64,000 nucleotides of DNA from Escherichia coli (GTDB lineage Bacteria; Pseudomonadota; Gammaproteobacteria; Enterobacterales; Enterobacteriaceae). Position 1 is the first letter of the stretch. The number at the start of each line of letters is the position of its first letter. A program made the translations under genes and the position numbers. The stretch is from assembly GCF_003991155.1 (NCBI RefSeq), contig NZ_CP031293.1; one strand, written 5' to 3'. This document shows, piece by piece, positions 1,057 through 41,667 of the stretch. The notes beneath the pieces are model-generated. The model saw nothing but the letters and a program-made list of their open reading frames with translations. It ran no database searches and was not told where the DNA came from.

Positions 1057-2520
1057 TTATTTACATGCATATAACCTTCTGAAATTACTATAACAGTGCT
1101 CGTTCTTACTACCACTACAACGTTGTTCATCATATTCAGCGATTAAAGTTCCAGATATATAACCAAACTGAGGGCTATACGTTGACCCCGGACAGGCACA
1201 TGTCCCTGTATCACTATTCGGTATTACACACTTATATCCAGATACTTGATCGGTTATTGTTATAAAAATACCTTTCAGGCCATCACCACTTGCTGTCTGC
1301 CATTTACCACTGACACACGATAACACTCGGCCTGTACTGTCTCGCCCCACCAGACCATTAGGCGTACATTTCGCATTTAACGTTGCCTGACCATTTAAAT
1401 GGAGATATTCACCTGCTTTGATCCTGCCAGTTGATTCAATTGTTCCATTGGATTTTATCGTTCCGGCGGTAAGATTACCTGACGCATAAATATTACCCGC
1501 ATTGTTCATGTAAGCTTTAACTGTTTTACCGGTTCCTACACCAACAGTCCCTGACGCATACAAGTCATAGGTGCGAACACCGCCAGCCCAGCCAGCTGGC
1601 AGATCGTTTGGATTAAGTCCGTTCGTGGCAATACGACTACCAAATCTCGCCAGACCTGTTGTTGAAAGCGTATTCAGATAAGTATCGGATTTTACCTTCA
1701 GGTTGTTGTTGATATTTACAGGACCATTAAGGGTAGATGTTCCACCCACAGTCAGATCTGATGCAACAGACGCATTACCCGTGGTTTTCAGTGCTCCGGT
1801 TGTTGTTGTCCCTGATGCCGTCATATCTTTGATGTTTTTGATGCTCTTACCACCAAGATTCAGATCACCCGTCATCGGCAACGTTCCATCACGGCGCAGA
1901 TAAACAGAATACATTGAAGAGTTATACCCCACGCGGTAAGCCAGCAATCCACCACCCGTAATATTGCTGTAGCTGTTAGAGTTCTCACTCCACTGACCAC
2001 CATAGCCGGAAGCTATCTTGGTGTTTCTGCTCATCCCACCATCAACACCTGCCGCCTGAACCGCTTTACCTAACAGGTCATAACGAATACGACCACCTTC
2101 TTCCCACGGGCTGGCGGTTGTTATAAGGCCGTTAATGACATAATCAGGCGCTGTTCCTGAACGCTTTAACACAATCTTATAGGATGCTTTTTGCGCGTTA
2201 GTTCCTGTATAGCCTACAGGCAACAGACCTTCATTAATTAACGTCTGGTAAGTGATTTCACAACCAGCAGCCGAACATGTTCTTGGCCCCGGATCGCTAC
2301 TTTGATTGTTGGATGATGACAGTGTGGAAATCTTGTCATATCGAATACTGATATAGCGGTTAACCGCTTCACCAAGCTGTTTAATCTGTGTTCCAACATT
2401 ATCTGCTAATACCGCTTCCTGATTGTTTCGCATATCCTGAAACTTCATAAAAGCGATAAGCGTTCCAATACCTAAAACAATACTGACTTCCAGTAAGGTA
2501 AATCCTTTATTCTTTATCAT
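1057..2520 (-). CDS. pilV: Type IVb minor pilin / tip adhesin, PilV-like
   Basis: N-terminus [17 protein letters not shown] matches the type IV prepilin processing/hydrophobic motif (G|FTLLE); large Gly/Thr/Ser-rich body as in R64-type PilV; GGAGA RBS before ATG at 2520; directly downstream of pilS. Confidence 0.65.
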
Positions 2521-2572
2521 AATTATCTCCCTGTTTTGGCAATAAGAAAGAAAAGGGCTTACGCCCTCTTCA

Positions 2573-3130
2573 TTAAATAGACGTGAAAACTAATGTATTA
2601 CTTGTGGCATTCGTACATGCTGCTGCCGTAGCTGCCACATCGAGTGTTCCTCCTGCGGCTTTAACAACCTTGGTTCCAACCGTGGTAATGTAGAAATTAC
2701 CTGCTGCCGCTGTCGCAATCTTCACACATTCCGCTGCTGGCACATTATCGTATGTGATAGTGAAAGAAGAGCCAGCCGCTGATGATGGTCCTGTAGCTGT
2801 AGCAGCCAGCGTCACATTACCTTTAAAGGCATTAATGGGTTTAGCTGCCGTTCCTGACCCACTTAACATATTGTCAGGGAAGATTTTTGCCTGAACAGCC
2901 ACAGTATTTGTCAGGCCAGTAAAGCTTGATGCCGACGTGTATAATGCTTTAACACCTGCCTGTATGGTGGCAATGTTATTGGATTCTGCCTGCGCTCTTT
3001 GTGAAGCCTGAACCTTGGGATAAACGATAAAAGCCGCTACCACTAATGCAGCAATGATGCCCAAAACAAGTAATAGTTCGAGTAGTGAGAAACCTTTCTT
3101 GCTTTTTCTTTTGTTATTTAATAAAACCAT
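2573..3130 (-). CDS. pilS: Type IVb major prepilin, PilS-like
   Basis: Long basic leader [13 protein letters not shown] followed by [16 protein letters not shown], characteristic of type IVb prepilins; GGAGA RBS 6 nt before ATG. Confidence 0.65.
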
Positions 3131-3525: not shown

Positions 3526-3831
3526 TTATTTTTGTCTTCCATCCATTTGCGCCAGAAACTTCCTGCCTGCTTTTATATACGTTATTTTTTCAATATCATT
3601 CAGGTCAGGAACTGAAAGCAAAATCCCCATAACGAGTTCTTTATCCACCTGTTCGATATCGCAATGCATAGCTTTAGCTACTTCCGCGCCAAGTATAATC
3701 TTTAGCCTTGTTTCAATTTTCTTTCGTTCTGATTTCTCCAGAGACTTAAGACGATTAAGTTCAAGCTGAGCAAAAGCAACCTTTTGCTTTAATGTTTTTT
3801 CTGTTCTTGATCTTTTACTTTCATCACTCAT
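3526..3831 (-). CDS. Hypothetical small coiled-coil protein; weak resemblance to TraD-like relaxosome accessory proteins
   Basis: ORF; start overlaps the stop of the upstream gene by 4 nt (ATGA-type coupling); motif RKKIETRLKIILGAEVAKA recalled as similar to Ti-plasmid TraD, from memory only. Confidence 0.35.
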   Translation of the reverse strand: MSDESKRSRTEKTLKQKVAFAQLELNRLKSLEKSERKKIETRLKIILGAEVAKAMHCDIEQVDKELVMGILLSVPDLNDIEKITYIKAGRKFLAQMDGRQK

Positions 3832-4193
3832 ACAACATCATCCTTACCCAAAAAATAGGCAAATACTTCATCCACGCCTTTCATGGCGAGAACATCACTG
3901 AACAGCAAAATAGACGTCGCCAGATTTCCCGCTTCATCTGATGGTATAGACCTAAAGAACTCCATCACTTCATCTTCCTCATGGTATCGTGTCATCGCAT
4001 CAACTTTTATTTGCCATTCACCAATAGCAAAAAGCGCTGCTTCAAAGCAGGACTGAAATCGTTCTATATCAGGGCCAAAATGATACGTTATTCCGTCTTT
4101 ATATTTCGCAATGAAAATTTCAGTAATTTTTTCATTACTGCTCTGAAGAATATGAGTATCAATAGTAAAAACATAGGCCAGTTGTGCATTCAT
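3828..4193 (-). CDS. Hypothetical protein, first gene of a two-gene overlapping operon
   Basis: Clean 121-aa ORF with AT-rich upstream region; no recognisable motif. Confidence 0.4.
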   Translation of the reverse strand: MNAQLAYVFTIDTHILQSSNEKITEIFIAKYKDGITYHFGPDIERFQSCFEAALFAIGEWQIKVDAMTRYHEEDEVMEFFRSIPSDEAGNLATSILLFSDVLAMKGVDEVFAYFLGKDDVV

Positions 4194-4497
4194 TTTTTAT
4201 CTCCTTTGGTTATCGAATATTATATTTAACTATCACCAAAGAGAAATGACGTCAAATTAATAAAGTATTAGATATTACAATAGGATGTTAATCCTAAATC
4301 TACAACCGAAAATATCCCTTGTAATTATCCTTAATTTAAAATATTAAGTCATATGCACAATAATTAGTGATTCACCTAATCCAAAATCATCAGTAATTAA
4401 GTTATCAAATGATACACATTATTCTAAAACTTCTTTTATCTATATCCTCCAACGTTTACAATGCATGATAGGCAACGATTAATCATAAGAGGTAATT

Positions 4498-5376
4498 ATG
4501 AATATTTTTAGTCTCATCACTGATCCTGATAATGCAGTTTATTTGACTTTAGATAAATTTTATAAAAAAACGCATAGACATTATCCCTATATTCAAAAGG
4601 TTAATGGAGAAACTAAAGCATACGCTTTATGCCCAAGATGTCACAATCCGGTCCTTTTGGTTAATAGAATAAATAATCAGACGGAATCAAAAACTTTATA
4701 TGCTAAGCATGTTAAACATGATGTAATGGGTATCGCATCATATTCTCAACAAGGTTATGATGATTGCTCACTTGCAAACCCAACAAATCTTGATGCAAAA
4801 ATCAAAAGAGATATTAATAATAAATCAAATAATGAAATAAAAGATGCTGTTAAAAATTATTTCGATCTACTTATATACTCAATTGAATCACATATAGGCA
4901 TCAATTTTTCTGATTCCGTTTTAGCTCAAATGCTTGAGGATTTCAACGCTTGTGATGGACACCAGTATAGAGCGATTAACTTATATAATTTACCGTTATC
5001 ATTTGTCTACATCGCAAATGCTCAGGATCTTTACGGTTGTAGAGTAAACGGAAAAATCAAAGAAAATATAGATAAAAACTCAGAATCATTTATAACATCC
5101 GGTACAGAACTTTATGATAAGAGCCTGTATTATGTTAATAGAAAGAAAGGCAGTCCTTATAATAAAATCCTGTTTTATTTCTCTAATCATACCATTTCGA
5201 CAGAAAATGATGATGAATCGGTAATGTTATATATTGTAGAAAAAAAACAGGATCAGACTATAGATTCAGCAAAAATACTCTATAAAGAAAAAATATATTT
5301 TGATGGCACATATTTTTTTAATACTATGAAAAAAAGAGCACGGCTAAACGATTTAGCAAAATCAATTATTCAATAG
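4498..5376 (+). CDS. Hypothetical protein with Cys/His motif (CPRCHNPV ... HVKHD), possible zinc-ribbon or HNH-like
   Basis: 292-aa ORF, very AT-rich, Lys/Asn-rich; divergent from the 3526-4193 operon. Confidence 0.45.
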   Translation: MNIFSLITDPDNAVYLTLDKFYKKTHRHYPYIQKVNGETKAYALCPRCHNPVLLVNRINNQTESKTLYAKHVKHDVMGIASYSQQGYDDCSLANPTNLDAKIKRDINNKSNNEIKDAVKNYFDLLIYSIESHIGINFSDSVLAQMLEDFNACDGHQYRAINLYNLPLSFVYIANAQDLYGCRVNGKIKENIDKNSESFITSGTELYDKSLYYVNRKKGSPYNKILFYFSNHTISTENDDESVMLYIVEKKQDQTIDSAKILYKEKIYFDGTYFFNTMKKRARLNDLAKSIIQ

Positions 5377-5379
5377 TAT

Positions 5380-5688
5380 TTATTCTGGAATGCTAATTAT
5401 TTTTGATAACGGCTGGTTTAATACCAGCTTTATCAAGTCGATAGATATTGATGATGTATCAAATTGTTCCAACTCATACTCTGCAAAAGGTAAATCGCCG
5501 ACCACTTTTATATTCCCCATTATCTTTCCCAGAATATCACAAAATTCTTGATCTGTTTTTGGTTTTTCAATCAATCCTAAATCCAGTAACTTTTGATATT
5601 CAAATAATGCTCTAAGTGTTGCATTTTCCCAAAAAGTAAATTCCTGAAAATATGTTCCGTCTTCATATCTAGATTTTCTAAACTCCAT
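5380..5688 (-). CDS. Hypothetical protein
   Basis: 102-aa ORF convergent with 4498-5376; no recognisable motif. Confidence 0.35.
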   Translation of the reverse strand: MEFRKSRYEDGTYFQEFTFWENATLRALFEYQKLLDLGLIEKPKTDQEFCDILGKIMGNIKVVGDLPFAEYELEQFDTSSISIDLIKLVLNQPLSKIISIPE

Positions 5689-5989
5689 TATATCTCCTTA
5701 TGTTAATTATTATACATGGAGTAATACAATTATTCTCATCAGTCAAATCATAAAATTATAATAAATTCCATGAGTGGGTAAAGCTCAGTAGAAAAATAAA
5801 ATAGTGCAACGCATGTGATAGTATTTACTAACCAAAAACATCTGACACTCTCCGCGTTACTTATTTTTGCGCATTCGTGATTTTATTTTCACCTATCAAT
5901 TTTTAACTCTATTTTTCAATCTCAACCTGTGAATTGTGCAACACATAACACTCTCTGTTTTATTGGTTTTTTTCATCAAATTTAGCTAT

Positions 5990-6036
5990 CCCGCCTTACG
6001 GCGGGAATAATTAATACCTCTTTTGCCCTTACGGGC
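5990..6036 (+). other. Candidate oriT: two GC-stem hairpins sharing a TTAC loop
   Basis: cccgcc-ttac-ggcggg (5990-6005) and gccc-ttac-gggc (6025-6036), about 300 bp upstream of the relaxase gene; relaxase genes usually sit next to their oriT. Confidence 0.3.
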
Positions 6037-6337
6037 CTTTTCTTTACTCTTTTTGTCCTGTGGATGTGAAACCTACACCTTTAATCCAGTTTGCGCCGCT
6101 TATTCCGGCGTATTATTTTACAACAATACATATATTTCGTATTAATTGATAAGAGGGGCATTTTACATTGGCTTATTTTCTTAAAGACAATGCCCACCTA
6201 TACACTGCGTAGCAGTGTGTGGGGTCTACCGACGGTTGCCTGCCGCAGGCTAAAAGCAAAACCAAGGTCAACGTCAACCCCGAAGTTTTTCTGACGAAAA
6301 ACTAACAGCAGCATTTATATTTGAGGTTATATTTTTA

Positions 6338-8438: not shown

Positions 8439-9011
8439 ATGACAATGGAAATACTTACAGCAATTCTTGTTATCATTACAGGAATTTATGCATTTTTGAC
8501 ATACAAGATGTCGAGAATAAGCGAACGAACAGCTCAGATAATGAATGAGCAAACCGAGGCAATGTCTCGTCCTTATATAATAATCCAGCCAATGGTAAGA
8601 CCTCACTCGCAATTCCTATACCTGAAAATTTATAATAGCGGTAAGACACCAGCCTTGAATGTAAAATTAGAATTAGATAAGGATTTTTATCAGTTCGATG
8701 AACCAACTAAAAACCTAAAAGAAACAAGTGTTTTTACATCAACTATTGATAGCTTAGCGCCCAATCAAGAGTTATTCTTCGCCCTTGGTCAAGGTTGGGT
8801 TATTTTTGGAGAATCCAAAAACCCTTTACCACAACAATTTACAATAACTGCAACGTATAGTTATATGAATAAAGAAGTTGTTGAAAAAAACAATATAGAC
8901 TTAAGCCCTTTCATGCAAAGTGAAGGTGAGAAAAATCCTATTGTTGAAGAGCTTGAAAGAATAAGAAAAACTCAAGAAAAATTGATGAAGGTATCTAACA
9001 AATCGATATAA
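8439..9011 (+). CDS. Hypothetical membrane-anchored protein (single N-terminal TM helix)
   Basis: N-terminus MTMEILTAILVIITGIYAFLTY is hydrophobic; GGAG RBS before ATG. Confidence 0.45.
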   Translation: MTMEILTAILVIITGIYAFLTYKMSRISERTAQIMNEQTEAMSRPYIIIQPMVRPHSQFLYLKIYNSGKTPALNVKLELDKDFYQFDEPTKNLKETSVFTSTIDSLAPNQELFFALGQGWVIFGESKNPLPQQFTITATYSYMNKEVVEKNNIDLSPFMQSEGEKNPIVEELERIRKTQEKLMKVSNKSI

Positions 9012-9048
9012 TAAAATATCATTCACCACATTAAATGAAATACAATTC

Positions 9049-9090
9049 ATGCCCCTTCTGTCACTTTCCACAGCGTAGCAGGGGCATTTT
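9049..9090 (+). terminator. Possible bidirectional terminator between convergent genes
   Basis: atgcccct ... aggggcat stem followed by tttt; loop is long (23 nt). Confidence 0.3.
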
Positions 9091-9104
9091 GATCCAGCAT
9101 CCTT

Positions 9105-9635
9105 TTAGTTAGCTTTCCAACCATTACTGGTCTTAACTAAATTCATGGCACTATCAGCAGGTTCATTCATCCCTTTAACGCTGGCGAAGGCTTTTTTGTC
9201 AATCCAGCCCGGAACGTCAACCAGCTTCCACGTATAAGTCACGCGAACTACTTTCTGATTACCGTTTCCCGGCTCAGTCCATTCCTTAATCTCGTCAACA
9301 GCACGACGACCAACACAGGCACCGTCTGTTGTGCTCCAGACTTTGGCTTTTTTGCCTTCCTCTGTTATCCCTAATACATTCGAATCATAACCCTGCTCAA
9401 AAACCATCAGGCCCTGCTCAATAAAACCATCGAGGATCACTGAATTCGTCCCTGTGCCAGTCGAATCAAGTCGTGGCTTGGCAAGACAGATGGGGAAGCT
9501 GGTGTTATTGTTATCCAGCGAGAAGCAGTATTTGTCTTGCCCAATCTTGGCATTAATCGCTTTCTCAAACTCACCTTTCTCACCACATCCCGCCAGTGTC
9601 AGAGTTGCGCCTACAACGAGTAAAATCTTCTTCAT
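9105..9635 (-). CDS. Hypothetical lipoprotein
   Basis: Signal peptide with lipobox MKKILLVVGATLTLAGC when started at ATG 9635. Confidence 0.5.
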   Translation of the reverse strand: MKKILLVVGATLTLAGCGEKGEFEKAINAKIGQDKYCFSLDNNNTSFPICLAKPRLDSTGTGTNSVILDGFIEQGLMVFEQGYDSNVLGITEEGKKAKVWSTTDGACVGRRAVDEIKEWTEPGNGNQKVVRVTYTWKLVDVPGWIDKKAFASVKGMNEPADSAMNLVKTSNGWKAN

Positions 9636-9780
9636 CTGCTTATCCATCCTGATAATCAAAATTGCGTATGTTTTTTGACCTAATCCGGTCAGGGCTAGAG
9701 TTGTTGCGGGATCCGGCTGATATCACATGGCAAAATCACCGCTTAACCAATTGATAGGATTCAATTCTTTTTGAGGCTCG

Positions 9781-9942
9781 TCATATCGTTTAAAACGATC
9801 AAAAACAACCATATGATAGTTTTTAACTATCATAAATTGATATTCGATCGATTATAACAATTAATAACCGATCGATATCGCGATTTCAATCGTTATAATC
9901 TATCAATAACTCATTATCGATCTTTTATATCGATCATTATTT
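9781..9942. repeat. Cluster of ATCGAT-containing motifs and a 9-bp-arm palindrome in a divergent intergenic region
   Basis: atgatagttTTTaactatcat (9822-9842) plus at least 5 ATCGAT/GATCGAT motifs within about 170 bp. Confidence 0.4.
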
Positions 9943-10054
9943 CAAGTTCTGATAGCCTTGCAACGCCGAGACCGACGCCATGAGTTTGGTGCAGTAGGAC
10001 GTATAAAACGAAGCAAAGCTCTGTGAGCGGGTTCAGTCTCTTTAACTCATTTAC

Positions 10055-10543
10055 ATGGAGGAAGTAAGAGTGGAAGCAACAAGTATCGTTTTTTTAGTGG
10101 TGCTCTTCGTCATTATCATGACCGCAGCAGTTATACAGAAGAAAAAGCACTACAACAGCTTTACGGAAGTTCTGGACGGCGACATTATTTCGTATGAATG
10201 CCAGCAGACAGGTATTGTAATTGATACTCAAAAACATACTGTCCGTATTTTCAATAAAGATAAAGACAGCACATATACTTTTGATGAAATCCGGGAAATA
10301 AATTATACGCTTTCAGAGGGTGGTAAGTTTTACGGCAATGGAACATTACGAGGTATGAATAATGCGGCTATTGCTAACTGGAGAGAACAACTTTCAGCGA
10401 ATAAACGGTCTGGCCTAAATATTTTAACCGATGATATTAAAAATCCCATGTGGAAAGTTAATGTTCCCCTGAAAAATAAAAGCACTTCAAATCACGAACT
10501 TTGTGAGCGATGGATGCTGGTATTTAAAAAGTATGTTTTCTGA
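10055..10543 (+). CDS. Hypothetical membrane-anchored protein (start may be GTG at 10070)
   Basis: N-terminal hydrophobic segment SIVFLVVLFVIIMTAAVI; GGAGG 8 nt before in-frame GTG. Confidence 0.4.
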   Translation: MEEVRVEATSIVFLVVLFVIIMTAAVIQKKKHYNSFTEVLDGDIISYECQQTGIVIDTQKHTVRIFNKDKDSTYTFDEIREINYTLSEGGKFYGNGTLRGMNNAAIANWREQLSANKRSGLNILTDDIKNPMWKVNVPLKNKSTSNHELCERWMLVFKKYVF

Positions 10544-10574
10544 GTCTCACCTTTCATCTATTTATGGAACAAAA

Positions 10575-10952
10575 ATGAAAAAATTATTACTTGCTATTTT
10601 TATCATATTACCACTTGGTGGCTGTACGGTTCATGGTAATAAATCCCTAACTGATGAAAATCATCAAACGGTTAAATTAAAAATCGTCAAGGGGAAAACT
10701 ACCCAACAAGAAATTCTTGCTGCCTTTGGAGAGCCTCAGACACGCGCTACGAATGATGGGCAGGAGATGTGGAACTACTCAAGTATGACGGGAGAAAGCC
10801 AACTATCTAACTACATACCGGGCCTTGCTCTATTGACCAATAGCAGCACGGCACACATTAAATCACTGGATATCTGGTTTAAGGGTGATGTTGTGGAACG
10901 TTATGATTTTCGTCAGACTGCAAGTAAGACATCTCGTGGCCTGCTTGATTAA
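10575..10952 (+). CDS. Lipoprotein, possibly BamE/SmpA-OmlA-like
   Basis: MKKLLLAIFIILPLGGC lipobox; mature part has a pattern reminiscent of small OM lipoproteins (VKLKIVKGKTTQQEILAAFGEP). Confidence 0.45.
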   Translation: MKKLLLAIFIILPLGGCTVHGNKSLTDENHQTVKLKIVKGKTTQQEILAAFGEPQTRATNDGQEMWNYSSMTGESQLSNYIPGLALLTNSSTAHIKSLDIWFKGDVVERYDFRQTASKTSRGLLD

Positions 10953-10966
10953 TATGTGTATATATA

Positions 10967-10992
10967 GGCCACAAATAGTTGTGGCCCTTTTC
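10967..10992 (+). terminator. Intrinsic terminator
   Basis: ggccacaa-atag-ttgtggcc perfect 8-bp stem followed by cttttcc. Confidence 0.5.
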
Positions 10993-11001
10993 CGTTATCA
11001 T

Positions 11002-11613
11002 CTATTTTTGTTTATATAAATCGTAGGAACTTAATTTTTTAGATTTCTCATAGGCATTTTCAATGTATAAAGATACATCTGCTAAAAATCGGTCTTCTTC
11101 TATCAATGAAATATAAGAACCAGTCAATTGATCATATGATTTGCACTCAGGGCAACAATATTTATCTTCTGAAGTTAAATTAAACCTATTATTATTAATA
11201 ATGTCATATAGTTCAGTTGTGTCAATAGTTCTTGATGAACATCCATCAGGCTTGATTGAAGAAGATACTAACCAGTCATAGCTATTATTAACCTTCATTA
11301 TCACACCAACAATGCCATTAGTTCGGGAAGTGGTTCCTCCTCTCTTGTATTCTTTCAATGCATATTCAATTTCCCAGTCAATCCATTTACTTTTAATCAT
11401 ATTCGGGGAAATAATAACGATTAAAACAGATGTCCCGAAAATCATATTTTTAAGATTGTTCTTTATATTATCTACTGTTGTATTACTTATATCAGGAGAC
11501 TCCGATGTTTCCCCTTTATAGTAAACAGCATCATCACCTAATGCCTTGACAATTTTGTCTCTTAAATCCTGTGCTTCACTATATTTATATGATATGAATG
11601 TTTCATGAGCCAT
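11002..11613 (-). CDS. thsB: Thoeris ThsB, TIR-domain protein
   Basis: N-terminal ETFISYKYSEAQ and WIDWEIEYAL are typical TIR-domain signatures; 16 bp downstream of thsA on the same strand. Confidence 0.8.
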   Translation of the reverse strand: MAHETFISYKYSEAQDLRDKIVKALGDDAVYYKGETSESPDISNTTVDNIKNNLKNMIFGTSVLIVIISPNMIKSKWIDWEIEYALKEYKRGGTTSRTNGIVGVIMKVNNSYDWLVSSSIKPDGCSSRTIDTTELYDIINNNRFNLTSEDKYCCPECKSYDQLTGSYISLIEEDRFLADVSLYIENAYEKSKKLSSYDLYKQK

Positions 11614-11629
11614 AACTTCACCTAATATA

Positions 11630-13066
11630 TTATTTATTCAGTTTGTTTATGATTTTTATTACAACTTCTATTGTTTTTTTTACCGAAAAATCTTTTTCAG
11701 TAAGCTCAGACAAATCATTATATATCCATTCATTACTTCCATAATATTTCTTAGGATCTTGTGATATTTGTTCAAATATATATTTAGACATATACCCGGT
11801 ATTGGGTAAAGGAATTGGTACAAGGCCATGTTGAACAGCAATCTCAAACTCTCTAAATACTCCCCTAGCATTTACTATATCATTATTTTCCTCTTGTTTA
11901 TTTCCAAAAATAAACAATGCAATACCACCAAGAGGAATCATTCTCTGTCTATACTCCTCCCAAAGTTCTTGAATATCTTTCCCCTTACTGACAGTTTGTG
12001 GAAATGGTCTAACAATGAGCTGTTCTTCTGATAATTTATCTGGCCTACTATAAATTGCATCCAACGCACCATTTATCACAGAACTTCCGACGCCCCATCC
12101 AAATCCATTCACTATCCTATAATTATTCTTTATAATCTCATATGCTAATGTGTGAATAAAATCTAATGCTTTAGGTCTTTCAAGATCCCCATATTTTTCT
12201 GCACTACCAGAAATAAATATCGTTTTCTTTTTAAATGATTGCTCTATCTTAGCTAGAATTTTAGGGATGTCAGAATATTCATCTATTAATAATACTTGTA
12301 TACCAAATCTCTTGAGATCATCGATTCGCAGTTTTTGTTTTCTGATCTTATAATTTACTGTTTCTTCATCATCTAGGGAATTATTAGCCTCATTCTTCAT
12401 AAAGCAATAGTGTGTCCTCTTGTCCCCAGAATGAGTATACAAACGACTCAAAATGTAATCCAGATTTGGGTCGGTAAAACTAAACCCTATGAATAGAAAG
12501 GTTTTTGATATTAAATCTCCGCTAAGTGCGGTGATAAATGAAGCGTGTGTTCTGTAGTATTTTTCATACTGCTCTTTATATAAAATAGCCTTGGATGGGG
12601 ACGAAATATCACCATGCATTTTATATACTATCGCGTCTCGCTTAGGTCGTGTTGTATTTAAATCATCTATGTTTCTTTTTACATCTGCAATTTTGTAAAC
12701 TTTCCGCAGACTATCTTCAATTAAAGTGTCATAGTTTGTTGTCCAAAATGTCTTAATCGGTAAACGAGCAATTATATTATGAACCTCTGATGGCTCGGCT
12801 TGCTCAGAAAACTCTTCGATTATCTTCCTTGTGAGTTTTGTAGCCCCTTTCTTTTCATTAACATGAAATTGAGCAAGCGATATTAGATCGTCTTCTTTAT
12901 TAATGTCTAAACTAAGCTCTTCTGCTATATCGCTAAGTAATTCTTTCCAATCAACATAACCTTGACTTTTAGACATTCCTGCGCCAGAAAAAATAGCAGC
13001 ACAATCATTTTCAAGATCTTTAACAAAATCTTTTATGAAAACTTCAATTTCATTACTAAACGTCAT
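11630..13066 (-). CDS. thsA: Thoeris ThsA, SIR2 (NAD-binding) plus SLOG domain protein
   Basis: From ATG at 13066 (GGAG RBS 9 nt upstream) the protein MTFSNEIEVFIKDF...AAIFSGAGMS...TTNYD...MHGD (SIR2) then IFISGSA...GFGWGVGSSVINGALD (SLOG) closely parallels Bacillus cereus ThsA as I recall it. Confidence 0.85.
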   Translation of the reverse strand: MTFSNEIEVFIKDFVKDLENDCAAIFSGAGMSKSQGYVDWKELLSDIAEELSLDINKEDDLISLAQFHVNEKKGATKLTRKIIEEFSEQAEPSEVHNIIARLPIKTFWTTNYDTLIEDSLRKVYKIADVKRNIDDLNTTRPKRDAIVYKMHGDISSPSKAILYKEQYEKYYRTHASFITALSGDLISKTFLFIGFSFTDPNLDYILSRLYTHSGDKRTHYCFMKNEANNSLDDEETVNYKIRKQKLRIDDLKRFGIQVLLIDEYSDIPKILAKIEQSFKKKTIFISGSAEKYGDLERPKALDFIHTLAYEIIKNNYRIVNGFGWGVGSSVINGALDAIYSRPDKLSEEQLIVRPFPQTVSKGKDIQELWEEYRQRMIPLGGIALFIFGNKQEENNDIVNARGVFREFEIAVQHGLVPIPLPNTGYMSKYIFEQISQDPKKYYGSNEWIYNDLSELTEKDFSVKKTIEVVIKIINKLNK

Positions 13067-13274
13067 TACACTTATCTCCATTTTAACTATTATTCCCAAA
13101 AGTAGAGAATAAACCTTTCAACCGGAGTTCATGAAACAGCATCTAAAAATATTCTGCCGGATACGAGTAAAATCATACTGGATATAAAAACAGTTGTCGA
13201 GAACTAAAACAATTGAAAACATGGCCAGATGGCATAGATAATATTACATACGAAAATTATTAACCAGATAATAT

Positions 13275-14237
13275 TCACGATGGTGATGTTTCATCGGACA
13301 TCCTTACATTATAAAGAAAAACCAGATGCATATTTACATCATTTCTTTTCTTAAAATAGCTATAACGCTGGAGGCTCAGCCATTTTGATGTTGCCAATAC
13401 GTATGGGCAGCCCTCCTTCCTGCTGGCACAACTTCTTAATGGATTGCCACTCCGCTTTTCAGACTCCATGTGAGAAGTGAGCGAATCAAAAGCACCGTCG
13501 GCTACGACGATGGTAGGTTCTTCATCTGTTTCATTGCCGATCGACTCCGTATTTGTGCTTTCAGCACGTTCTTCTTCCAGTTCAGCCAGACTCGCTTTCA
13601 GCTCATCAAGGCTGCTGGCTGCGTCTTTTGGTGCATAGAAGAACAGCCCGCTAATGAAGATGGCTTCCATAACCTCTCTAAAAGAAAACGAGGTATCGCC
13701 ATAAACAAAGCAACTGTGCTTGGAACTCTTCACACCCGATACGTTTTTCTTCAGCAAACCGTCTTTCGGTGAAGTCATTAATGTCTGTTTGCTATAGAGG
13801 ATTACAGGAAGATTTTTAATTTGTTGAACATCGCCGCTGATACTCCAGCGTTCTTTATCTCCTTTGATAAAGCCGGAAGCATCACAGCTACTTTCTATGT
13901 CAAACTCATCAGTCGGGAAGCGCTCGCGATTAAAATAGGTCGAAAAATCCTCCCCTTCTTCCATATCCTGACGCTTGTAAGCGCGATAAACCGAGCTTCG
14001 ACGGTCAATTCCGATCCATTCAATATCCCATGCCGTTGGCCCGGACGGTTTTCTTACCTCATCTATATAAGCACCAACATCTCTGTCCAGATAAGCTGCT
14101 AACAAAGCCTTCCATGGTTCTATTGCCAGAAAGATACTTGCCAGCGTTGTTCCTTCTTCAATCAGAACGGTATGGTGGAAGAACCGGAGAAGAAAGAACG
14201 GATCGGTATTGGCTATGACGTTCTGGATGGATAGCAA
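13275..14237 (-). CDS. Hypothetical protein with acidic central region
   Basis: 320-aa ORF immediately upstream of thsA; no recognisable domain. Confidence 0.35.
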   Translation of the reverse strand: MLSIQNVIANTDPFFLLRFFHHTVLIEEGTTLASIFLAIEPWKALLAAYLDRDVGAYIDEVRKPSGPTAWDIEWIGIDRRSSVYRAYKRQDMEEGEDFSTYFNRERFPTDEFDIESSCDASGFIKGDKERWSISGDVQQIKNLPVILYSKQTLMTSPKDGLLKKNVSGVKSSKHSCFVYGDTSFSFREVMEAIFISGLFFYAPKDAASSLDELKASLAELEEERAESTNTESIGNETDEEPTIVVADGAFDSLTSHMESEKRSGNPLRSCASRKEGCPYVLATSKWLSLQRYSYFKKRNDVNMHLVFLYNVRMSDETSPS

Positions 14238-14369
14238 TGGAACGGCAGCGGTTTCATCGTAATTGGATTGAAACCGTAGTATTGCATCGGAACAAAAATT
14301 AACTTACCTTCCATTGCTCATCCTTCTCCTGTAGTTATCAGACTAAATATTTTACCAGATCATAGGTTA

Positions 14370-14756
14370 TTATCGCATTTTGCTTTTTACTGATTCATAT
14401 TCGTTGGTGTGATCCTTAAAAGTGCTTATTGCTTTGGGCAATGACCTGTTAAATAAACCATTAATCTCCTGTGATGCTTTTCCGTTTCTGACAACCATAA
14501 TATATCCAAGAGTCAGATCTTGTCTTATCATTGGATTCAATGATTCTATACCTATGCTAATCCCCGTATTTTTGTATTTAGCAACCGGATACCCAACTGA
14601 ACTATGGATAACAATATTGCCGCTATCTGCAAGCCTTGATAACATTCTGTCGCTGTATATCGATTTTCTTAAATCCTCTAAAACAGGGATATAGTGTTTA
14701 TCCATTGTTCCTGTTAAAGTTGTAGGTATATAGATCTTTGTTTTTATTTTTAGCAT
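14370..14756 (-). CDS. Hypothetical protein
   Basis: 128-aa ORF, same strand as and upstream of 13275-14237. Confidence 0.35.
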   Translation of the reverse strand: MLKIKTKIYIPTTLTGTMDKHYIPVLEDLRKSIYSDRMLSRLADSGNIVIHSSVGYPVAKYKNTGISIGIESLNPMIRQDLTLGYIMVVRNGKASQEINGLFNRSLPKAISTFKDHTNEYESVKSKMR

Positions 14757-14883
14757 GATATTTTCCTGTTATTGTTTTTATTTAATACCATGCAACTGAT
14801 CGTAATATCAAAGATATTTATTATGTTCAATATAACTTTTAAAACATCTGCGATTTTATAGTTTCTTCACTCATCTGTGTGAG

Positions 14884-15108
14884 TTATGAAACCAAACGAA
14901 TATAAATATTTTTCAACCTGTCTTTATCACAACGACTTACAGACTCTGATAACAGATAATGACTATAATTATTGACACAAATATTGTTGCCGTTTTCAAG
15001 GGTTAATTTCAATCCAAGTTCTGTATCTTCAACTTTGTTTATAATACAGATCATAAATGGTGTTTTGTCATGTGGATGGAAGAGTGTGATCATTTTGATA
15101 TTGTTCAT
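14884..15108 (-). CDS. Hypothetical small protein (doubtful)
   Basis: 74-aa ORF in AT-rich DNA; no RBS assessment possible. Confidence 0.2.
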   Translation of the reverse strand: MNNIKMITLFHPHDKTPFMICIINKVEDTELGLKLTLENGNNICVNNYSHYLLSESVSRCDKDRLKNIYIRLVS

Positions 15109-15436
15109 TGTGTTTGTCCTTTTTTATTTATTACTGGTTAATACTCTATCGCAAGTGTAAAAATCAAATATATTTTCATTTATTAATGATTTTACTTCTT
15201 ATTATTAAACTTCTTTTTGAAAAGATTTTTATCTCTGTGCTTATGCACGGCTACGCCCTAAAACTGACATTTTGTATTTTATTTTACTACTATGAGGTAA
15301 TAAGTGAATGTATTCGATCATAGTCAGATCTATTTTCCTTTTAACTTTTAATTCGGTTCCTATGTTTGAACATAGCATTCCTCCTCTGACATATAGCATT
15401 TGCTCTTAAATGTATAGGAAAACTATATCTTTAGTA

Positions 15437-15474
15437 GCAGCACTTCGTGATTGTTGCCAACAATCACTTTGCTG
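15437..15474. repeat. 38-bp repeat containing a perfect palindrome gtgattgttg-c-caacaatcac (copy 1)
   Basis: Direct reading of the sequence; 10-bp arms. Confidence 0.6.
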
Positions 15475-15576
15475 AACAGGGCTTGTCCCTGTTAATTATG
15501 GATTTATCCAAAAAAAGATCGCGTCGAAGACGCATATAAAGTAAAAGGAAAATTAATTAAGCTCTCACAGTAAATG

Positions 15577-15614
15577 CAGCGGTTCGTGATTGTATGCAAC
15601 AATCACTTCGCTGT
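15577..15614. repeat. 38-bp repeat, copy 2 (gtgattgt-atgca-acaatcac), about 85 percent identical to copy 1
   Basis: Direct reading; 140 bp from copy 1 in an ORF-free stretch. Confidence 0.6.
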
Positions 15615-15835
15615 AATAACATAGTAAGGAAGATAAAGTTCAATAACGTTAGTAGGTGCCATTTATATAAGACACCAATCAACTAAAAAGAAGAACTGTT
15701 TTCTATATTTCATCCTTTTAAACGTCATCCAAAGCTTCGCTATTTGAATAATGAAGAAGAAAAATGCTCTCAAGCCAGTTATAGCTTAAAACAAAGTACG
15801 CACTCTCGGGAGTTAAAGTCCCGAATCCCGGTACT

Positions 15836-15854
15836 TAAGATGATAATCATTATC
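15836..15854. promoter_or_regulatory. Fur-box-like palindrome
   Basis: taagatgataatcattatc matches the 19-bp Fur consensus GATAATGATAATCATTATC at 16/19; core tgataatcattatca is a perfect 7-1-7 palindrome; about 170 bp upstream of gene 16023. Confidence 0.4.
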
Positions 15855-16022
15855 AATAATAAAAAATAATACAGCTCCTATTTTTACTTATTTCAGAACT
15901 TGAAGTTTTTAATAACCAAACTTCAAGTATTATTATTTTTATAAAAACTGCACTTAAAATATTGACTAACTAAAAATAGTACGTTATCTACTTTATATAA
16001 AAAGAATAAAGGGGAAAGTATT

Positions 16023-16568
16023 ATGTTAGATAATAAAATAAAAAAATCAAGAAGAGGTCTACCTCGCCATGTAAAAAACCCATTCCTTAATGATACAAAT
16101 ATACATACAAAAACAGGTATCAGACGTATCACAACAGGAAAAGATCGCTTAGCCGTAGTAAATGAAAATACAGGAGAACAGGTTGGGCATGGTGGTTTCT
16201 TTCAGTCAATGGAAGTAGACAAGACACAGTTCGTGAAGCTTTATGTGGATGGCGTATCAGCTATTGAGGGTTTATCCTCATCCGGTAAGAAAGTATTTAA
16301 GATACTGTATCTTGCTATTAGAGACAATAAAGATACAGATACGATATTAATGTCATTCGATATTGTTGATCAAGAGATTGTAAAAATATCAAGAACGACA
16401 TATTTCAAAGGGATGAAAGAACTTGCTGACAAGAAATTTATTGCTGAGACCATGATACAGAACTATTATTTTATTAATCCAGACTATATGTTTAATGGTG
16501 ATCGTTTAACTTTCATGAAAACTTATTACTTGAAGGGTAAAAAGAAAACAGCGAATAATAAAAATTAA
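16023..16568 (+). CDS. Hypothetical basic protein, possibly DNA-binding
   Basis: 181-aa ORF with AAAGGGGAAAG RBS-like region upstream; weak resemblance to small replication/DNA-binding proteins, not verified. Confidence 0.35.
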   Translation: MLDNKIKKSRRGLPRHVKNPFLNDTNIHTKTGIRRITTGKDRLAVVNENTGEQVGHGGFFQSMEVDKTQFVKLYVDGVSAIEGLSSSGKKVFKILYLAIRDNKDTDTILMSFDIVDQEIVKISRTTYFKGMKELADKKFIAETMIQNYYFINPDYMFNGDRLTFMKTYYLKGKKKTANNKN

Positions 16569-16722
16569 TTACCAACGGGAAAACAGGTTAAAAAATCGCC
16601 GTAATAAACTACGATTACATTAAAGGTATTTTCTTGCCAAGAGAGAAACATCACCAATTTGACACCTGAACCATATCTCGTAATATAAATATATCAACCA
16701 TTTTATTTACGAGGTATTTCTT

Positions 16723-40372: not shown

Positions 40373-41667
40373 GCTTCCGGCTCCCGCTGTTTCTCACGCA
40401 GTACCCGGTCATAGACCTGGGCATAGACTTCGTTAAACAGCATTTCAAATCCCTGCTGGCGATCGGACGCCAGTTCTTCGTAATAATGGCTGTACATCTG
40501 CCAGGCTCCGGCGGCGTCCAGCGGCTGGCGAAGTTCATGGCTGCGGCGGTACTGCACAAAACGGCGCATCAGGCTCTGTGGTGAAAACGCATCCAGCAGC
40601 ACGCGGAGCGACTCCACAATCGCCGCCCGGTTGGCCTCTTCGTGATGGCGGATATTGCGCAGGCTTTCGCTGACGGCGGCAGGGGCCGCCAGATGTACCG
40701 GGCTTTTGCCCTCTGCAAACATCACATCAAGCGCGGTGGCGTAATCCATGTTCAGCCGCAGCGGGTTATCTTCCAGCGGGCGCAAATGTTTATCCGACAG
40801 GCTGTTACGGTGCTGTTGTAGATCGAGTAACCCTTTTATTGCCGCCTGTAGGGTTCGTCCGGCCTCTTCGAGAAAACCATCCGCATCCTGCGAGTTGCGT
40901 ACAGCCAGGGTACTACCCAGCCCACGCAGTAGCGGGGTAACAGCAAGATGGAGTTGGGCGATGTCAGTCGGATTAACGGAATCATCATGCTTCTCCTGCG
41001 GATCGGGATACACCGGAGGCAGATCCATAAACGGTTTGTCGATCACACCATCCCTGACGGGAGCCGAAGAGCGGGTTGGGACGATCCCGGAGAGAGGATC
41101 ACCCGCCACCGTCAAACTTTCTGCCTGAAGCGCCTGCAACGGATCGGCTGAAAAACTGTTGGCCACGGTATCTGCAAGCTGGTGTCGCTGGGGCATACCT
41201 GGATATGCAGGCTGGCCGTCCGTTGTCAGCAATGAGTCCGCCAGACGATCACGGTTAGTGACGATAGTTTCAGGTGCTGCCATCTGTTCGCTGTAAGTGA
41301 TCAGTTTTCCTGTGTGGATAAACACCTTCAGCGCCAGTGCCCCCAGCACGATCTCGTCCCCCTGTCGCAGACGTACCAGCCCGGCATCCAGGGCAACCGG
41401 AGCCAGGTTAATCATCAGTCCTGTACCCAGACTCTTCAGACAAAATGCGCCGTCATGCACCACCACCTGGCAGGCACGACCGGCAACGGAACCGGCCCTG
41501 TCCTGTACCGGCCAGTGGCACTCAGGCAGGTTACCGATATCCCCGCCATCAGCAGTAAAGAGGCATTTTGCGGCACGTCCGCTCTCCAGTTCATTACCGT
41601 TCATCACCTGTAATGTCATTGAGAGCCGGGAGGACTGCGTTTTTTCTTCAGCCATATGCGATTCCAT
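40369..41667 (-). CDS. tagH: T6SS FHA-domain protein TagH
   Basis: N-terminal FHA-like region then Pro-rich linker; start taken at ATG 41667 with AGGGA RBS. Confidence 0.65.
   Translation of the reverse strand: MESHMAEEKTQSSRLSMTLQVMNGNELESGRAAKCLFTADGGDIGNLPECHWPVQDRAGSVAGRACQVVVHDGAFCLKSLGTGLMINLAPVALDAGLVRLRQGDEIVLGALALKVFIHTGKLITYSEQMAAPETIVTNRDRLADSLLTTDGQPAYPGMPQRHQLADTVANSFSADPLQALQAESLTVAGDPLSGIVPTRSSAPVRDGVIDKPFMDLPPVYPDPQEKHDDSVNPTDIAQLHLAVTPLLRGLGSTLAVRNSQDADGFLEEAGRTLQAAIKGLLDLQQHRNSLSDKHLRPLEDNPLRLNMDYATALDVMFAEGKSPVHLAAPAAVSESLRNIRHHEEANRAAIVESLRVLLDAFSPQSLMRRFVQYRRSHELRQPLDAAGAWQMYSHYYEELASDRQQGFEMLFNEVYAQVYDRVLREKQREPEA

Follow-up and report, generated by a model that had tools for sequence, protein, structure and literature searches.

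The window analysed here is a 64,000-nucleotide stretch of an Escherichia coli chromosome (NZ_CP031293.1), in which an island of about 22 kb, annotated between zinT and a tRNA-Ser gene, holds an array of short repeated motifs. The island carries genes for an integrase, PilV and a pilin, a TraD-like protein, a MobQ relaxase, lipoproteins, a RepL-like protein and two members of the H-NS family, and its annotated DNA-binding proteins include AlpA/HTH proteins together with the RepL-like winged-helix protein. Judging from this gene set, the island is a ROD21-like (EARL) mobilizable genomic island, the Enterobacteriaceae-associated ROD21-like islands being both excisable and mobilizable (PMC6035254, PMC10655114). 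The array sits in a 434-bp gap between a leftward lipoprotein gene and a rightward gene with a RefSeq start at 10070, whose product was assigned to DUF4755 (Pfam, E=3.9e-14). Since the two genes point away from each other, the region is divergent, as had been stated in an initial annotation that put its size at about 400 bp. The relaxase gene mobQ lies 2 kb from the array and repL (16023–16568) 6 kb from it. Searches with PADLOC, Pfam and NCBIfam yielded no function for the DUF4755 protein or the lipoproteins, and an Rfam scan of positions 9000–16600 (E<=1) returned no match, thus giving no support for a known RNA element. The genes next to the array are the following.

9105–9635, minus strand: leftward lipoprotein gene, which the array might also control; almost all homologues have a leftward lipoprotein operon on their left side
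10070–10952, plus strand: DUF4755 membrane protein gene (10070–10543) and small lipoprotein gene (10575–10952), a probable regulated operon (annotation, Pfam)

The initial annotation had drawn attention to at least five ATCGAT or GATCGAT motifs within about 170 bp of this gap, together with a palindrome with 9-bp arms, and had judged such a cluster unlikely to arise by chance. Direct reading of the sequence confirmed a local excess of both ATCGAT and GATC, the number of exact ATCGAT copies being four rather than five (9847, 9871, 9916 and 9929). Two are preceded by G, giving GATCGAT from 9846 and 9870, and the other two extend to ATCGATC. GATC itself occurs five times (9797, 9846, 9870, 9919 and 9932), and the region, with a G+C content of 25%, contains CGAT eight times and ATCG seven times. 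The judgement on chance was borne out when the 162 bp at 9781–9942 were shuffled with their dinucleotides preserved (ATCGAT, P=0.036; GATC, P=0.008). Over the 64-kb window as a whole ATCGAT is not enriched (19 found vs 17 expected), and against a background of 0.3 per kb the array is the only place with more than two copies per 162 bp. A second GATC cluster, at 41001–41142, was considered and found to be ordinary, lying in DNA of 57% GC without OxyR-like sites.

The palindrome, ATGATAGTT-TTT-AACTATCAT, was found at 9813–9833, and a repeat search showed a 22-nt unit repeated at 9785, 9816, 9847, 9889 and 9920 (spacing 31/31/42/31), every copy of which opens with a 15-bp dyad of the form ATMG-N7-CKAT. 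With one further dyad at 9754, six phased 15-bp dyads are present at spacings of 31/31/31/42/31, which correspond to whole helical turns and place the half-sites about three turns apart on one face of the helix. When compared with the consensus for the half-site of an OxyR dimer, ATAGnTnnnAnCTAT, as quoted in PMC2909390 and PMC4856963, the six dyads (U0 to U5) match at 7, 8, 10, 8, 9 and 7 of the ten specified positions. The ATCGAT motifs are thus arms of imperfect dyads, and the palindrome, which had been taken for a separate feature, is the one perfect OxyR-type half-site; motifs and palindrome are parts of a single array. Within it, strong sites that lack GATC (U2, U4 and, more weakly, U0) alternate with the imperfect, GATC-bearing U1, U3 and U5, and one further GATC lies between U3 and U4. 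The components of the array and a candidate promoter element beside it are listed below, the half-sites having been located by a consensus scan and by comparison with homologues.

9745–9937, unstranded: conserved non-coding block holding the whole array, defined by a near indel-free alignment of 11 homologues from 9 genera
9754–9768, unstranded: U0, weak OxyR-type half-site ATAGGATTCAATTCT, 7/10, 31 bp left of U1; scores 6–8/10 at the same offset in 15 homologues, a conservation that is partly by construction, as U0 overlaps the anchor used to collect some of them
9785–9799, unstranded: U1, half-site ATCGTTTAAAACGAT, 8/10, its right arm overlapped by GATC 'a' (9797–9800)
9816–9830, unstranded: U2, perfect half-site ATAGTTTTTAACTAT, 10/10, without GATC, the core of the palindrome
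9847–9861, unstranded: U3, half-site ATCGATTATAACAAT, 8/10, its left arm overlapped by GATC 'b' (9846–9849)
9870–9873, unstranded: GATC 'c', between U3 and U4, in the context CCGATCGATATC; at a fixed offset in 15/15 homologues
9889–9903, unstranded: U4, strong half-site ATCGTTATAATCTAT, 9/10, without GATC; 8–10/10 in homologues
9919–9935, unstranded: U5, weakest half-site ATCTTTTATATCGAT (9920–9934, 7/10), flanked by GATC 'd' (9919) and 'e' (9932), 13 bp apart
9950–9958, plus strand: candidate extended −10 element TGaTAGCCT of a rightward promoter, 15 nt after U5; picked by eye, weak

The arrangement is unusual for DNA of this composition. Finding at least four half-sites at 8/10 or better within about 105 bp had a probability of 3e-4 in local shuffles, and the five phased sites reach a summed score of 42/50 against a maximum of 33 among 20,000 shuffles, for a comb of spacings that was picked after seeing the data. 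Two of the four sites in the 64-kb window that score at least 9/10 belong to the array, U2 being the only one at 10/10, and a rule asking for a strong site with a GATC-bearing site 31–32 bp away singles out this array alone in the window.

Related islands, in which the initial annotation had suggested looking for the same array, revealed very strong conservation. A BLAST search matched the intergenic core, though not its flanks, in records from Yersinia, Klebsiella, Salmonella and Morganella, and a pattern scan of species-representative genomes added eight more species with the array. Outside the block 9745–9937, the flanks on either side are lineage-specific among the 11 homologues from nine genera. 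Among 5426 complete E. coli genomes, 684 carry the array, in every case on the chromosome and at 73–100% identity; the model strains CFT073, Nissle 1917, EPEC E2348/69 and EAEC 042 are among the carriers. All six half-sites are in place in 15 distinct sequences from nine genera, at spacings of 31 / 31–32 / 31 / 42–44 / 31, and the five GATC are kept at fixed offsets in 14 of the 15, a single GATC having been lost in one Yersinia sequence. U2 scores 8–10/10 in all homologues while its internal n positions vary, and the same holds more generally: across the 15 sequences, entropy is 0.13 bit at the ten consensus positions vs 1.04 bit at the five unspecified n positions of each dyad (Mann-Whitney p=1e-11, a test that overstates independence because the sequences are related and some were collected via an anchor overlapping U0 and the left arm of U1), with the spacers between dyads intermediate at 0.73 bit. 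The same column may read TCGATCT, TAGATCG or TTGATCT among homologues, so that GATC is kept where ATCGAT is lost, which identifies GATC, and not ATCGAT, as the selected element. The imperfect half-sites never improve to consensus in any of the 15 homologues. As improvement of either OBSB or OBSD, the imperfect half-sites of the Salmonella opvAB switch, locks that switch ON (PMC4856963), the retained imperfection can be read as a requirement of a bistable switch.

The closest characterised relative of the array is indeed the control region of opvAB (STM2209-STM2208), an OxyR/Dam phase-variation switch of Salmonella enterica (Cota et al., PMC3350482, PMC4856963). One of the BLAST matches (E=3e-8) falls in the opvAB regulatory region of Salmonella Infantis, the record used as the opvAB sequence for comparison; the identity of the locus was confirmed by its setB neighbourhood and by a 34-aa OpvA starting 24 nt after the predicted transcription start. 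Local alignment of the array with this region gave 75% identity over 117 columns (z=19), with every GATC and half-site colinear. GATC 'a', and with it U1, corresponds to GATC1; U2 to OBSA (ATAGTTTTTATCTAT); U3 with GATC 'b' to OBSB with GATC2; GATC 'c' to GATC3, which likewise lies outside the half-sites (PMC4856963); U4 to OBSC (ATAGTTTATATCTAT); and U5 to OBSD with GATC4. The opvAB half-sites are centred at −148, −116, −75 and −43, giving spacings of 32/41/32 (PMC4856963), and score 10, 8, 10 and 7, as compared with 10, 8, 9 and 7 at 31/42/31 for U2 to U5. Both systems thus alternate perfect or strong GATC-free sites (OBSA/OBSC, U2/U4) with imperfect GATC-bearing ones (OBSB/OBSD, U3/U5), and both have extra GATC beyond these, GATC1 and GATC3 in opvAB lying outside half-sites and having 'a' and 'c' as their counterparts. 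For opvAB, OxyR binding has been demonstrated experimentally, including by footprinting, and the ON and OFF lineages carry opposite GATC methylation patterns (PMC4856963). The array differs from opvAB by two additional half-sites at the left, the weak U0 and the GATC-bearing U1, and by the second GATC that U5 carries. Its setting differs too: divergent genes flank it, and the mobilizable island that bears it occurs in many genera, whereas opvAB is, according to its descriptions, restricted to Salmonella enterica. Nor are the genes downstream related, being those for DUF4755 and a lipoprotein in one case and for OpvA and the Wzz-like OpvB in the other, and the promoter adjoining U5 is not conserved with that of opvAB.

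Similarity extends to other members of the group. The switch of the gtr operon of phage P22 and Salmonella (Broadbent et al., PMC2909390) has three half-sites 32 bp apart (32/32), of which the middle one is perfect and the outer two bear GATC, a layout repeated by U1-U2-U3. Both fit the signature CGATC-N15/16-ATAGnTnnnAnCTAT-N15/16-GATCG, U2 resembles gtr half-site B (ATAGATAAAAACTAT), and the two sequences align at 77% over 44 columns (z=6.5), a lower overall similarity. Half-sites A and C of gtr, like U5 of the array, each hold two GATC separated by 13 bp; the three half-sites of gtr thus bear four GATC in two pairs, in contrast to six half-sites, five GATC and a pair in U5 only. The U5 region is 86% identical over 36 columns to the OxyR site of agn43 (flu; z=10), the agn43 stretch TTATCGATC(G/T)TTTATATCGATC being nearly identical to U5 and its flanks, with GATC-II and GATC-III of agn43 spaced 13 bp apart like the GATC pair in U5; U5 of the Klebsiella type shares, in addition, the next GATCGATAAG of agn43. 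In agn43 of E. coli, OxyR is a repressor and Dam gives the ON state, acting through one OxyR site and three GATC downstream of the transcription start with repression only, whereas the array has several alternative pairs of half-sites upstream of, or overlapping, the putative promoter. A slightly relaxed signature, CGATC-N14-16-ATAGnTnnnAnCTAT-N14-17-GATCG, fits all of these relatives, and a scan of IMG/VR with the signature returned 20 contigs, all resembling OxyR/Dam cassettes: P22-type gtr, ten EARL-type arrays, a cassette upstream of a fimbrial operon and two others.

Dam and OxyR are encoded by E. coli and other Enterobacterales. The array combines at least two half-sites, a spacing of about 32 bp, GATC within or abutting half-sites and relatedness to a characterised member, which are among the features by which an OxyR/Dam switch is recognised. 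Together, these sequence comparisons suggest that the array, borne on a ROD21-like (EARL) island, is probably an epigenetic on/off switch operated by Dam and OxyR, akin to agn43, gtr and opvAB. OxyR binding, differential methylation and bistability at the array, as well as the identity and direction of its promoter, are inferred by analogy with the characterised systems. By homology with opvAB and gtr, OxyR and Dam would compete for the array after replication: a site occupied by OxyR would keep the GATC it overlaps unmethylated, while methylation, where Dam wins, would shut OxyR out of that half-site. The strong GATC-free U2 and U4 would anchor OxyR, and the weak GATC-bearing U1, U3 and U5 would be bound only if unmethylated and, once bound, would remain so. 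Two mutually exclusive, heritable patterns of occupancy and methylation may result, OxyR occupying either just the strong sites or the U1-U2 pair in the first, and the canonical U2-U3 and U4-U5 pairs beside the promoter in the second. As such patterns would be self-perpetuating, a clonal population is proposed to split into ON and OFF cells.

On balance, the target appears to be a promoter located just past U5 and directed rightward into the DUF4755-lipoprotein operon, and the leftward lipoprotein gene may be co-regulated. The orientation of the relatives points to the right, since opvAB, gtr, agn43, the cassette on a Morganella plasmid and the phage-borne cassettes all align with the plus strand of the window, their genes lying to the right. 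In CFT073, Nissle, E2348/69, Samsonia and L031 the array is followed by the DUF4755-lipoprotein pair; L031 has the 3' end of mobQ, and no divergent gene, to the left of its array, and DUF4755 is still on the right. In E. coli 042 and AST81, a plus-strand operon ending in an H-NS paralogue starts 70 bp past the array. The Yersinia and Klebsiella-type islands have no rightward ORF for 0.2–1.1 kb past the array, which weakens the case for the right side as the ancestral target, and the leftward lipoprotein operon is an almost constant neighbour. The distance of 18 nt from the half-site to the start of the hexamer TAGCCT, in the candidate −10 element, equals that in gtr of P22. TGaTAGCCT is missing from the list produced by the promoter scan, in which no candidate abuts U5 in the window, and neither promoter nor terminator predictions exceeded what shuffles yield, in the window or in four homologous loci. 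Candidates abutting U5 are present in E. coli 042 (TTTACA-16-TATGTT) and Samsonia (TTGAGA-16-TATCCT), in scans likewise not above shuffles. The promoter scans returned no convincing leftward promoter next to U0/U1. An E. coli-specific candidate, TCGATA-16-TATAAT at 9872–9899, was rejected as the promoter of the family, as it lies in the variable U4 spacer and is not conserved. The tcpC 'P1' promoter fragment of CFT073 (PMC8147327) corresponds to the traD-mobQ intergenic region and not to the array.

The phased dyads could instead be operators of another LysR-type or island-encoded DNA-binding protein, with GATC serving SeqA or being incidental, an explanation that we regard as unlikely. The T-N11-A type of dyad is common to many LysR regulators, and GATC methylation prevents another LysR factor, HdfR, from binding (PMC6735912). 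The RepL-like winged-helix and AlpA/HTH proteins of the island provide candidates of its own, and PMC10655114 describes the RepL homologue of ROD21 not as a replication protein but as a wHTH regulator. However, conservation falls exactly on the ten positions of the OxyR half-site, with its ATAG/CTAT arms, the homologous control region of opvAB is the one bound and footprinted with OxyR, and related cassettes occur at opvAB, at phage gtr and on a Morganella plasmid, all of them loci without the proteins of the island. An operator array controlling the divergent flanking genes was among the three readings of the initial annotation, and it holds in kind, although ATCGAT is a by-product and the conserved elements are GATC, the Dam site, and the ATMG-N7-CKAT dyads.

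The other two readings, iterons and a parS-like site, found no support. It is very improbable that the array serves the excised island in replication, as the iterons or origin of a RepL replicon with GATC for SeqA sequestration as at oriC or P1 oriR. The AT-rich DNA, the repeated units and the five GATC would suit an origin, and in Yersinia and Klebsiella-type islands the array lies 1.1–1.4 kb upstream of repL with no large same-strand gene between them. The units are nevertheless dyads and not direct repeats, repL is distant in the window, and relatives have separate direct repeats immediately upstream of repL. Moreover, the array is kept next to DUF4755 in islands with differing right-hand content, ROD21 has been reported to be single-copy with a RepL homologue dispensable for maintenance (PMC10655114), and the homologous sequences at opvAB and gtr are proven to be regulatory, not replicative.

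A centromere-like (parS) site or an accessory oriT site of the MobQ relaxosome is about as improbable. Centromeres and relaxosome accessory sites typically contain short palindromes in arrays, the mobilizable island encodes MobQ and a TraD-like protein, and the array of L031 directly follows mobQ; yet no partition genes of the ParA/ParB, ParM/ParR or a similar type are annotated on the 22-kb island or in its Yersinia and Klebsiella relatives, and the same cassette occurs at phage and chromosomal loci without a relaxase. The oriT of a MOBQ relaxase normally adjoins the relaxase gene and has an inverted repeat ahead of a conserved nick sequence; a better candidate is located just upstream of mobQ (about 5990–6110), where G+C-rich hairpins are followed by GTTTGCGCCGC, a sequence that resembles the MOBQ nick region.

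Equally remote is the idea that the region is an AT-rich nucleation and silencing site for H-NS, or a pap-like Lrp/Dam switch. The low G+C content, the TCGAT-containing motifs, which resemble the high-affinity H-NS motif TCGATAAATT, and the H-NS paralogues of the island speak for the former, and CGATCTTTTAT in the array resembles the pap GATC box. H-NS sites are degenerate, however, and would not give indel-free, base-specific conservation with variable n positions across nine genera. A pap-type switch is recognised by two GATC 102 bp apart (PMC2909390), in contrast to distances of 13, 24, 49, 49, 62, 73, 73, 86, 122 and 135 bp in the array, and genes for PapI and PapB are absent from the annotation of the island. 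H-NS may bind this region in addition to OxyR.

To our knowledge, only a few Dam/OxyR switches have been worked out, namely those of agn43, gtr, opvAB and phage Mu mom. The reading of the array as an OxyR/Dam switch would add a far more widely distributed one, present in about one in eight complete E. coli genomes and in at least eight other enterobacterial genera. The array has more sites than any described relative of this type, and it is island-borne and widespread. Its presence on a mobilizable E. coli island is apparently previously undescribed: within an incomplete coverage of the literature, neither the array nor relatives of the opvAB control region outside Salmonella are mentioned in the EARL/ROD21 papers, in a 2026 review of prokaryotic epigenetic regulation or in a 2026 study of opvAB promoter diversity, and methylome papers on ST131, Photorhabdus and Klebsiella and on the SMALR method contain no data on the array locus. 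The PIME mobilizable elements (bioRxiv 10.64898/2026.01.12.698999), for which oriV and oriT have been mapped, are not applicable here, belonging to a different family with IncP-type genes.

A more speculative extension, to which we attach only a small probability, would make the array a six-half-site, possibly bidirectional switch in the backbone of the island family that governs more than a single surface operon, giving heritable ON/OFF control to genes at the edge of a cargo-insertion hotspot, such as the operon ending in an H-NS paralogue in 042-type islands. As newly transferred DNA is unmethylated or hemimethylated, the array might then act as an OxyR-read 'arrival sensor' in a new host, OxyR might link it to the peroxide-stimulated excision reported for ROD21, and an EARL-type cassette might be the evolutionary source of opvAB, a horizontally acquired switch.

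The switch as proposed predicts that only a fraction of the cells in a clone would produce the DUF4755 protein and the small lipoproteins. Partial-population expression is the usual mark of surface or envelope traits under phage or immune pressure. For ROD21-like islands, gene expression has been reported to be heterogeneous and linked to excision, and the array would offer a concrete explanation that can be tested. The regulatory region of opvAB gains relatives and a possible origin. The signature shared by the array and gtr could be used to find further switches of this kind.

One further GATC cluster is found in the window, at 41001-41142, where six GATC sites occur; outside the array of OxyR-type half-sites and GATC sites, this is the sole window site with at least five GATC per 162 bp. 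It looks ordinary, because it has a GC content of 57%, is probably coding and contains no OxyR-like half-sites.

The initial annotation had listed iterons and operators among the possible functions of the array. As an iteron or operator for RepL, repeats adjoining the repL start are better candidates than this array. These repeats, and a set of hairpins in the same upstream region, are as follows:

Yersinia island (L002) 9120-9230: direct repeats ttcttc(a/g)(t/c)gattg... directly upstream of the repL start
Klebsiella island (L003) 9410-9500: direct repeats gtttc(c/t)t.t.cggaaac... directly upstream of the repL start
Window 15895-15935: inverted acttgaagt pair, in the position equivalent to the repL-proximal repeats of Yersinia and Klebsiella
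Window 15225-15620, L003 8870-9290 and L002 8640-8930: conserved hairpin set upstream of repL, non-coding

The hairpin set is common to the E. coli, Klebsiella and Yersinia islands and includes two copies of the hairpin gcagc(a/g)cttcgtgattgt...acaatcac...gctg as well as a further hairpin, cagggcttgtccctg, with the conserved motif tgcacggctacgcc lying in the same non-coding stretch. A scan of this stretch against Rfam returned no match. The hairpins could mark an origin or a single-strand initiation site, or could belong to a non-coding RNA.

Three other loci bear on the mobility and gene content of the islands:

Window 5990-6110: G+C-rich segment just upstream of mobQ, with two short hairpins followed by gtttgcgccgc
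Window 11002-13066, - strand: type I Thoeris defence pair ThsB and ThsA (PADLOC)
L001 5418-7491, about window 1057-3130: PilV tip adhesin and type IV major pilin genes (annotation)

The segment upstream of mobQ, whose two hairpins are cccgccttacggcggg and gcccttacgggc, could plausibly serve the MobQ relaxase as its oriT and nick region; its CFT073 counterpart is the fragment published as the tcpC promoter 'P1' (PMC8147327). The Thoeris pair, comprising ThsB (TIR; PADLOC E=2.6e-85) and ThsA (SIR2/STALD; E=8e-203), separates the array from repL as cargo and is encoded on the other strand from the operon that the switch would putatively drive. The cargo at this position differs among related islands, and the array-repL interval is therefore an insertion hotspot. 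PilV and the major pilin are the only thin-pilus components annotated on the island; with them, the island may re-equip the pilus made by an IncI-type helper plasmid; the EARL papers list the PilV/pilin genes without giving a function (PMC6035254).

The islands of E. coli 042 and AST81 are more divergent, with neither repL nor cargo between the array and an operon that follows it after 70 bp:

L017 (E. coli 042) 3766-5735, and L020 (AST81), + strand: operon in which three hypothetical genes are followed by an H-NS paralogue

The switch in these islands might control the island's xenogeneic-silencer homologue.

Related putative OxyR/Dam cassettes also occur outside the island:

L016 5995-6075: three-half-site cassette on Morganella morganii plasmid p1 (NZ_CP135145)

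The half-sites of the Morganella cassette are one of the GATC-N9-GATC type, a perfect ATAGTTTTTACCTAT and one bearing a GATC, and the cassette shows 82% identity to U1-U3 of the window array. Downstream of it are genes for an HTH protein, a hypothetical protein and a very large invasin-domain protein, making this a candidate phase-variable adhesin locus. Among the IMG/VR viral contigs, L026 carries a cassette with multiple sites, and small secreted proteins are encoded downstream of it. On five others (L025, L027, L033, L038 and L040), the OxyR/Dam signature precedes fimbrial major-subunit and chaperone genes by about 300 bp, with a P4-like integrase adjoining the fimbrial cassette, which suggests that this fimbrial operon is under OxyR/Dam, not Lrp/Dam, control.
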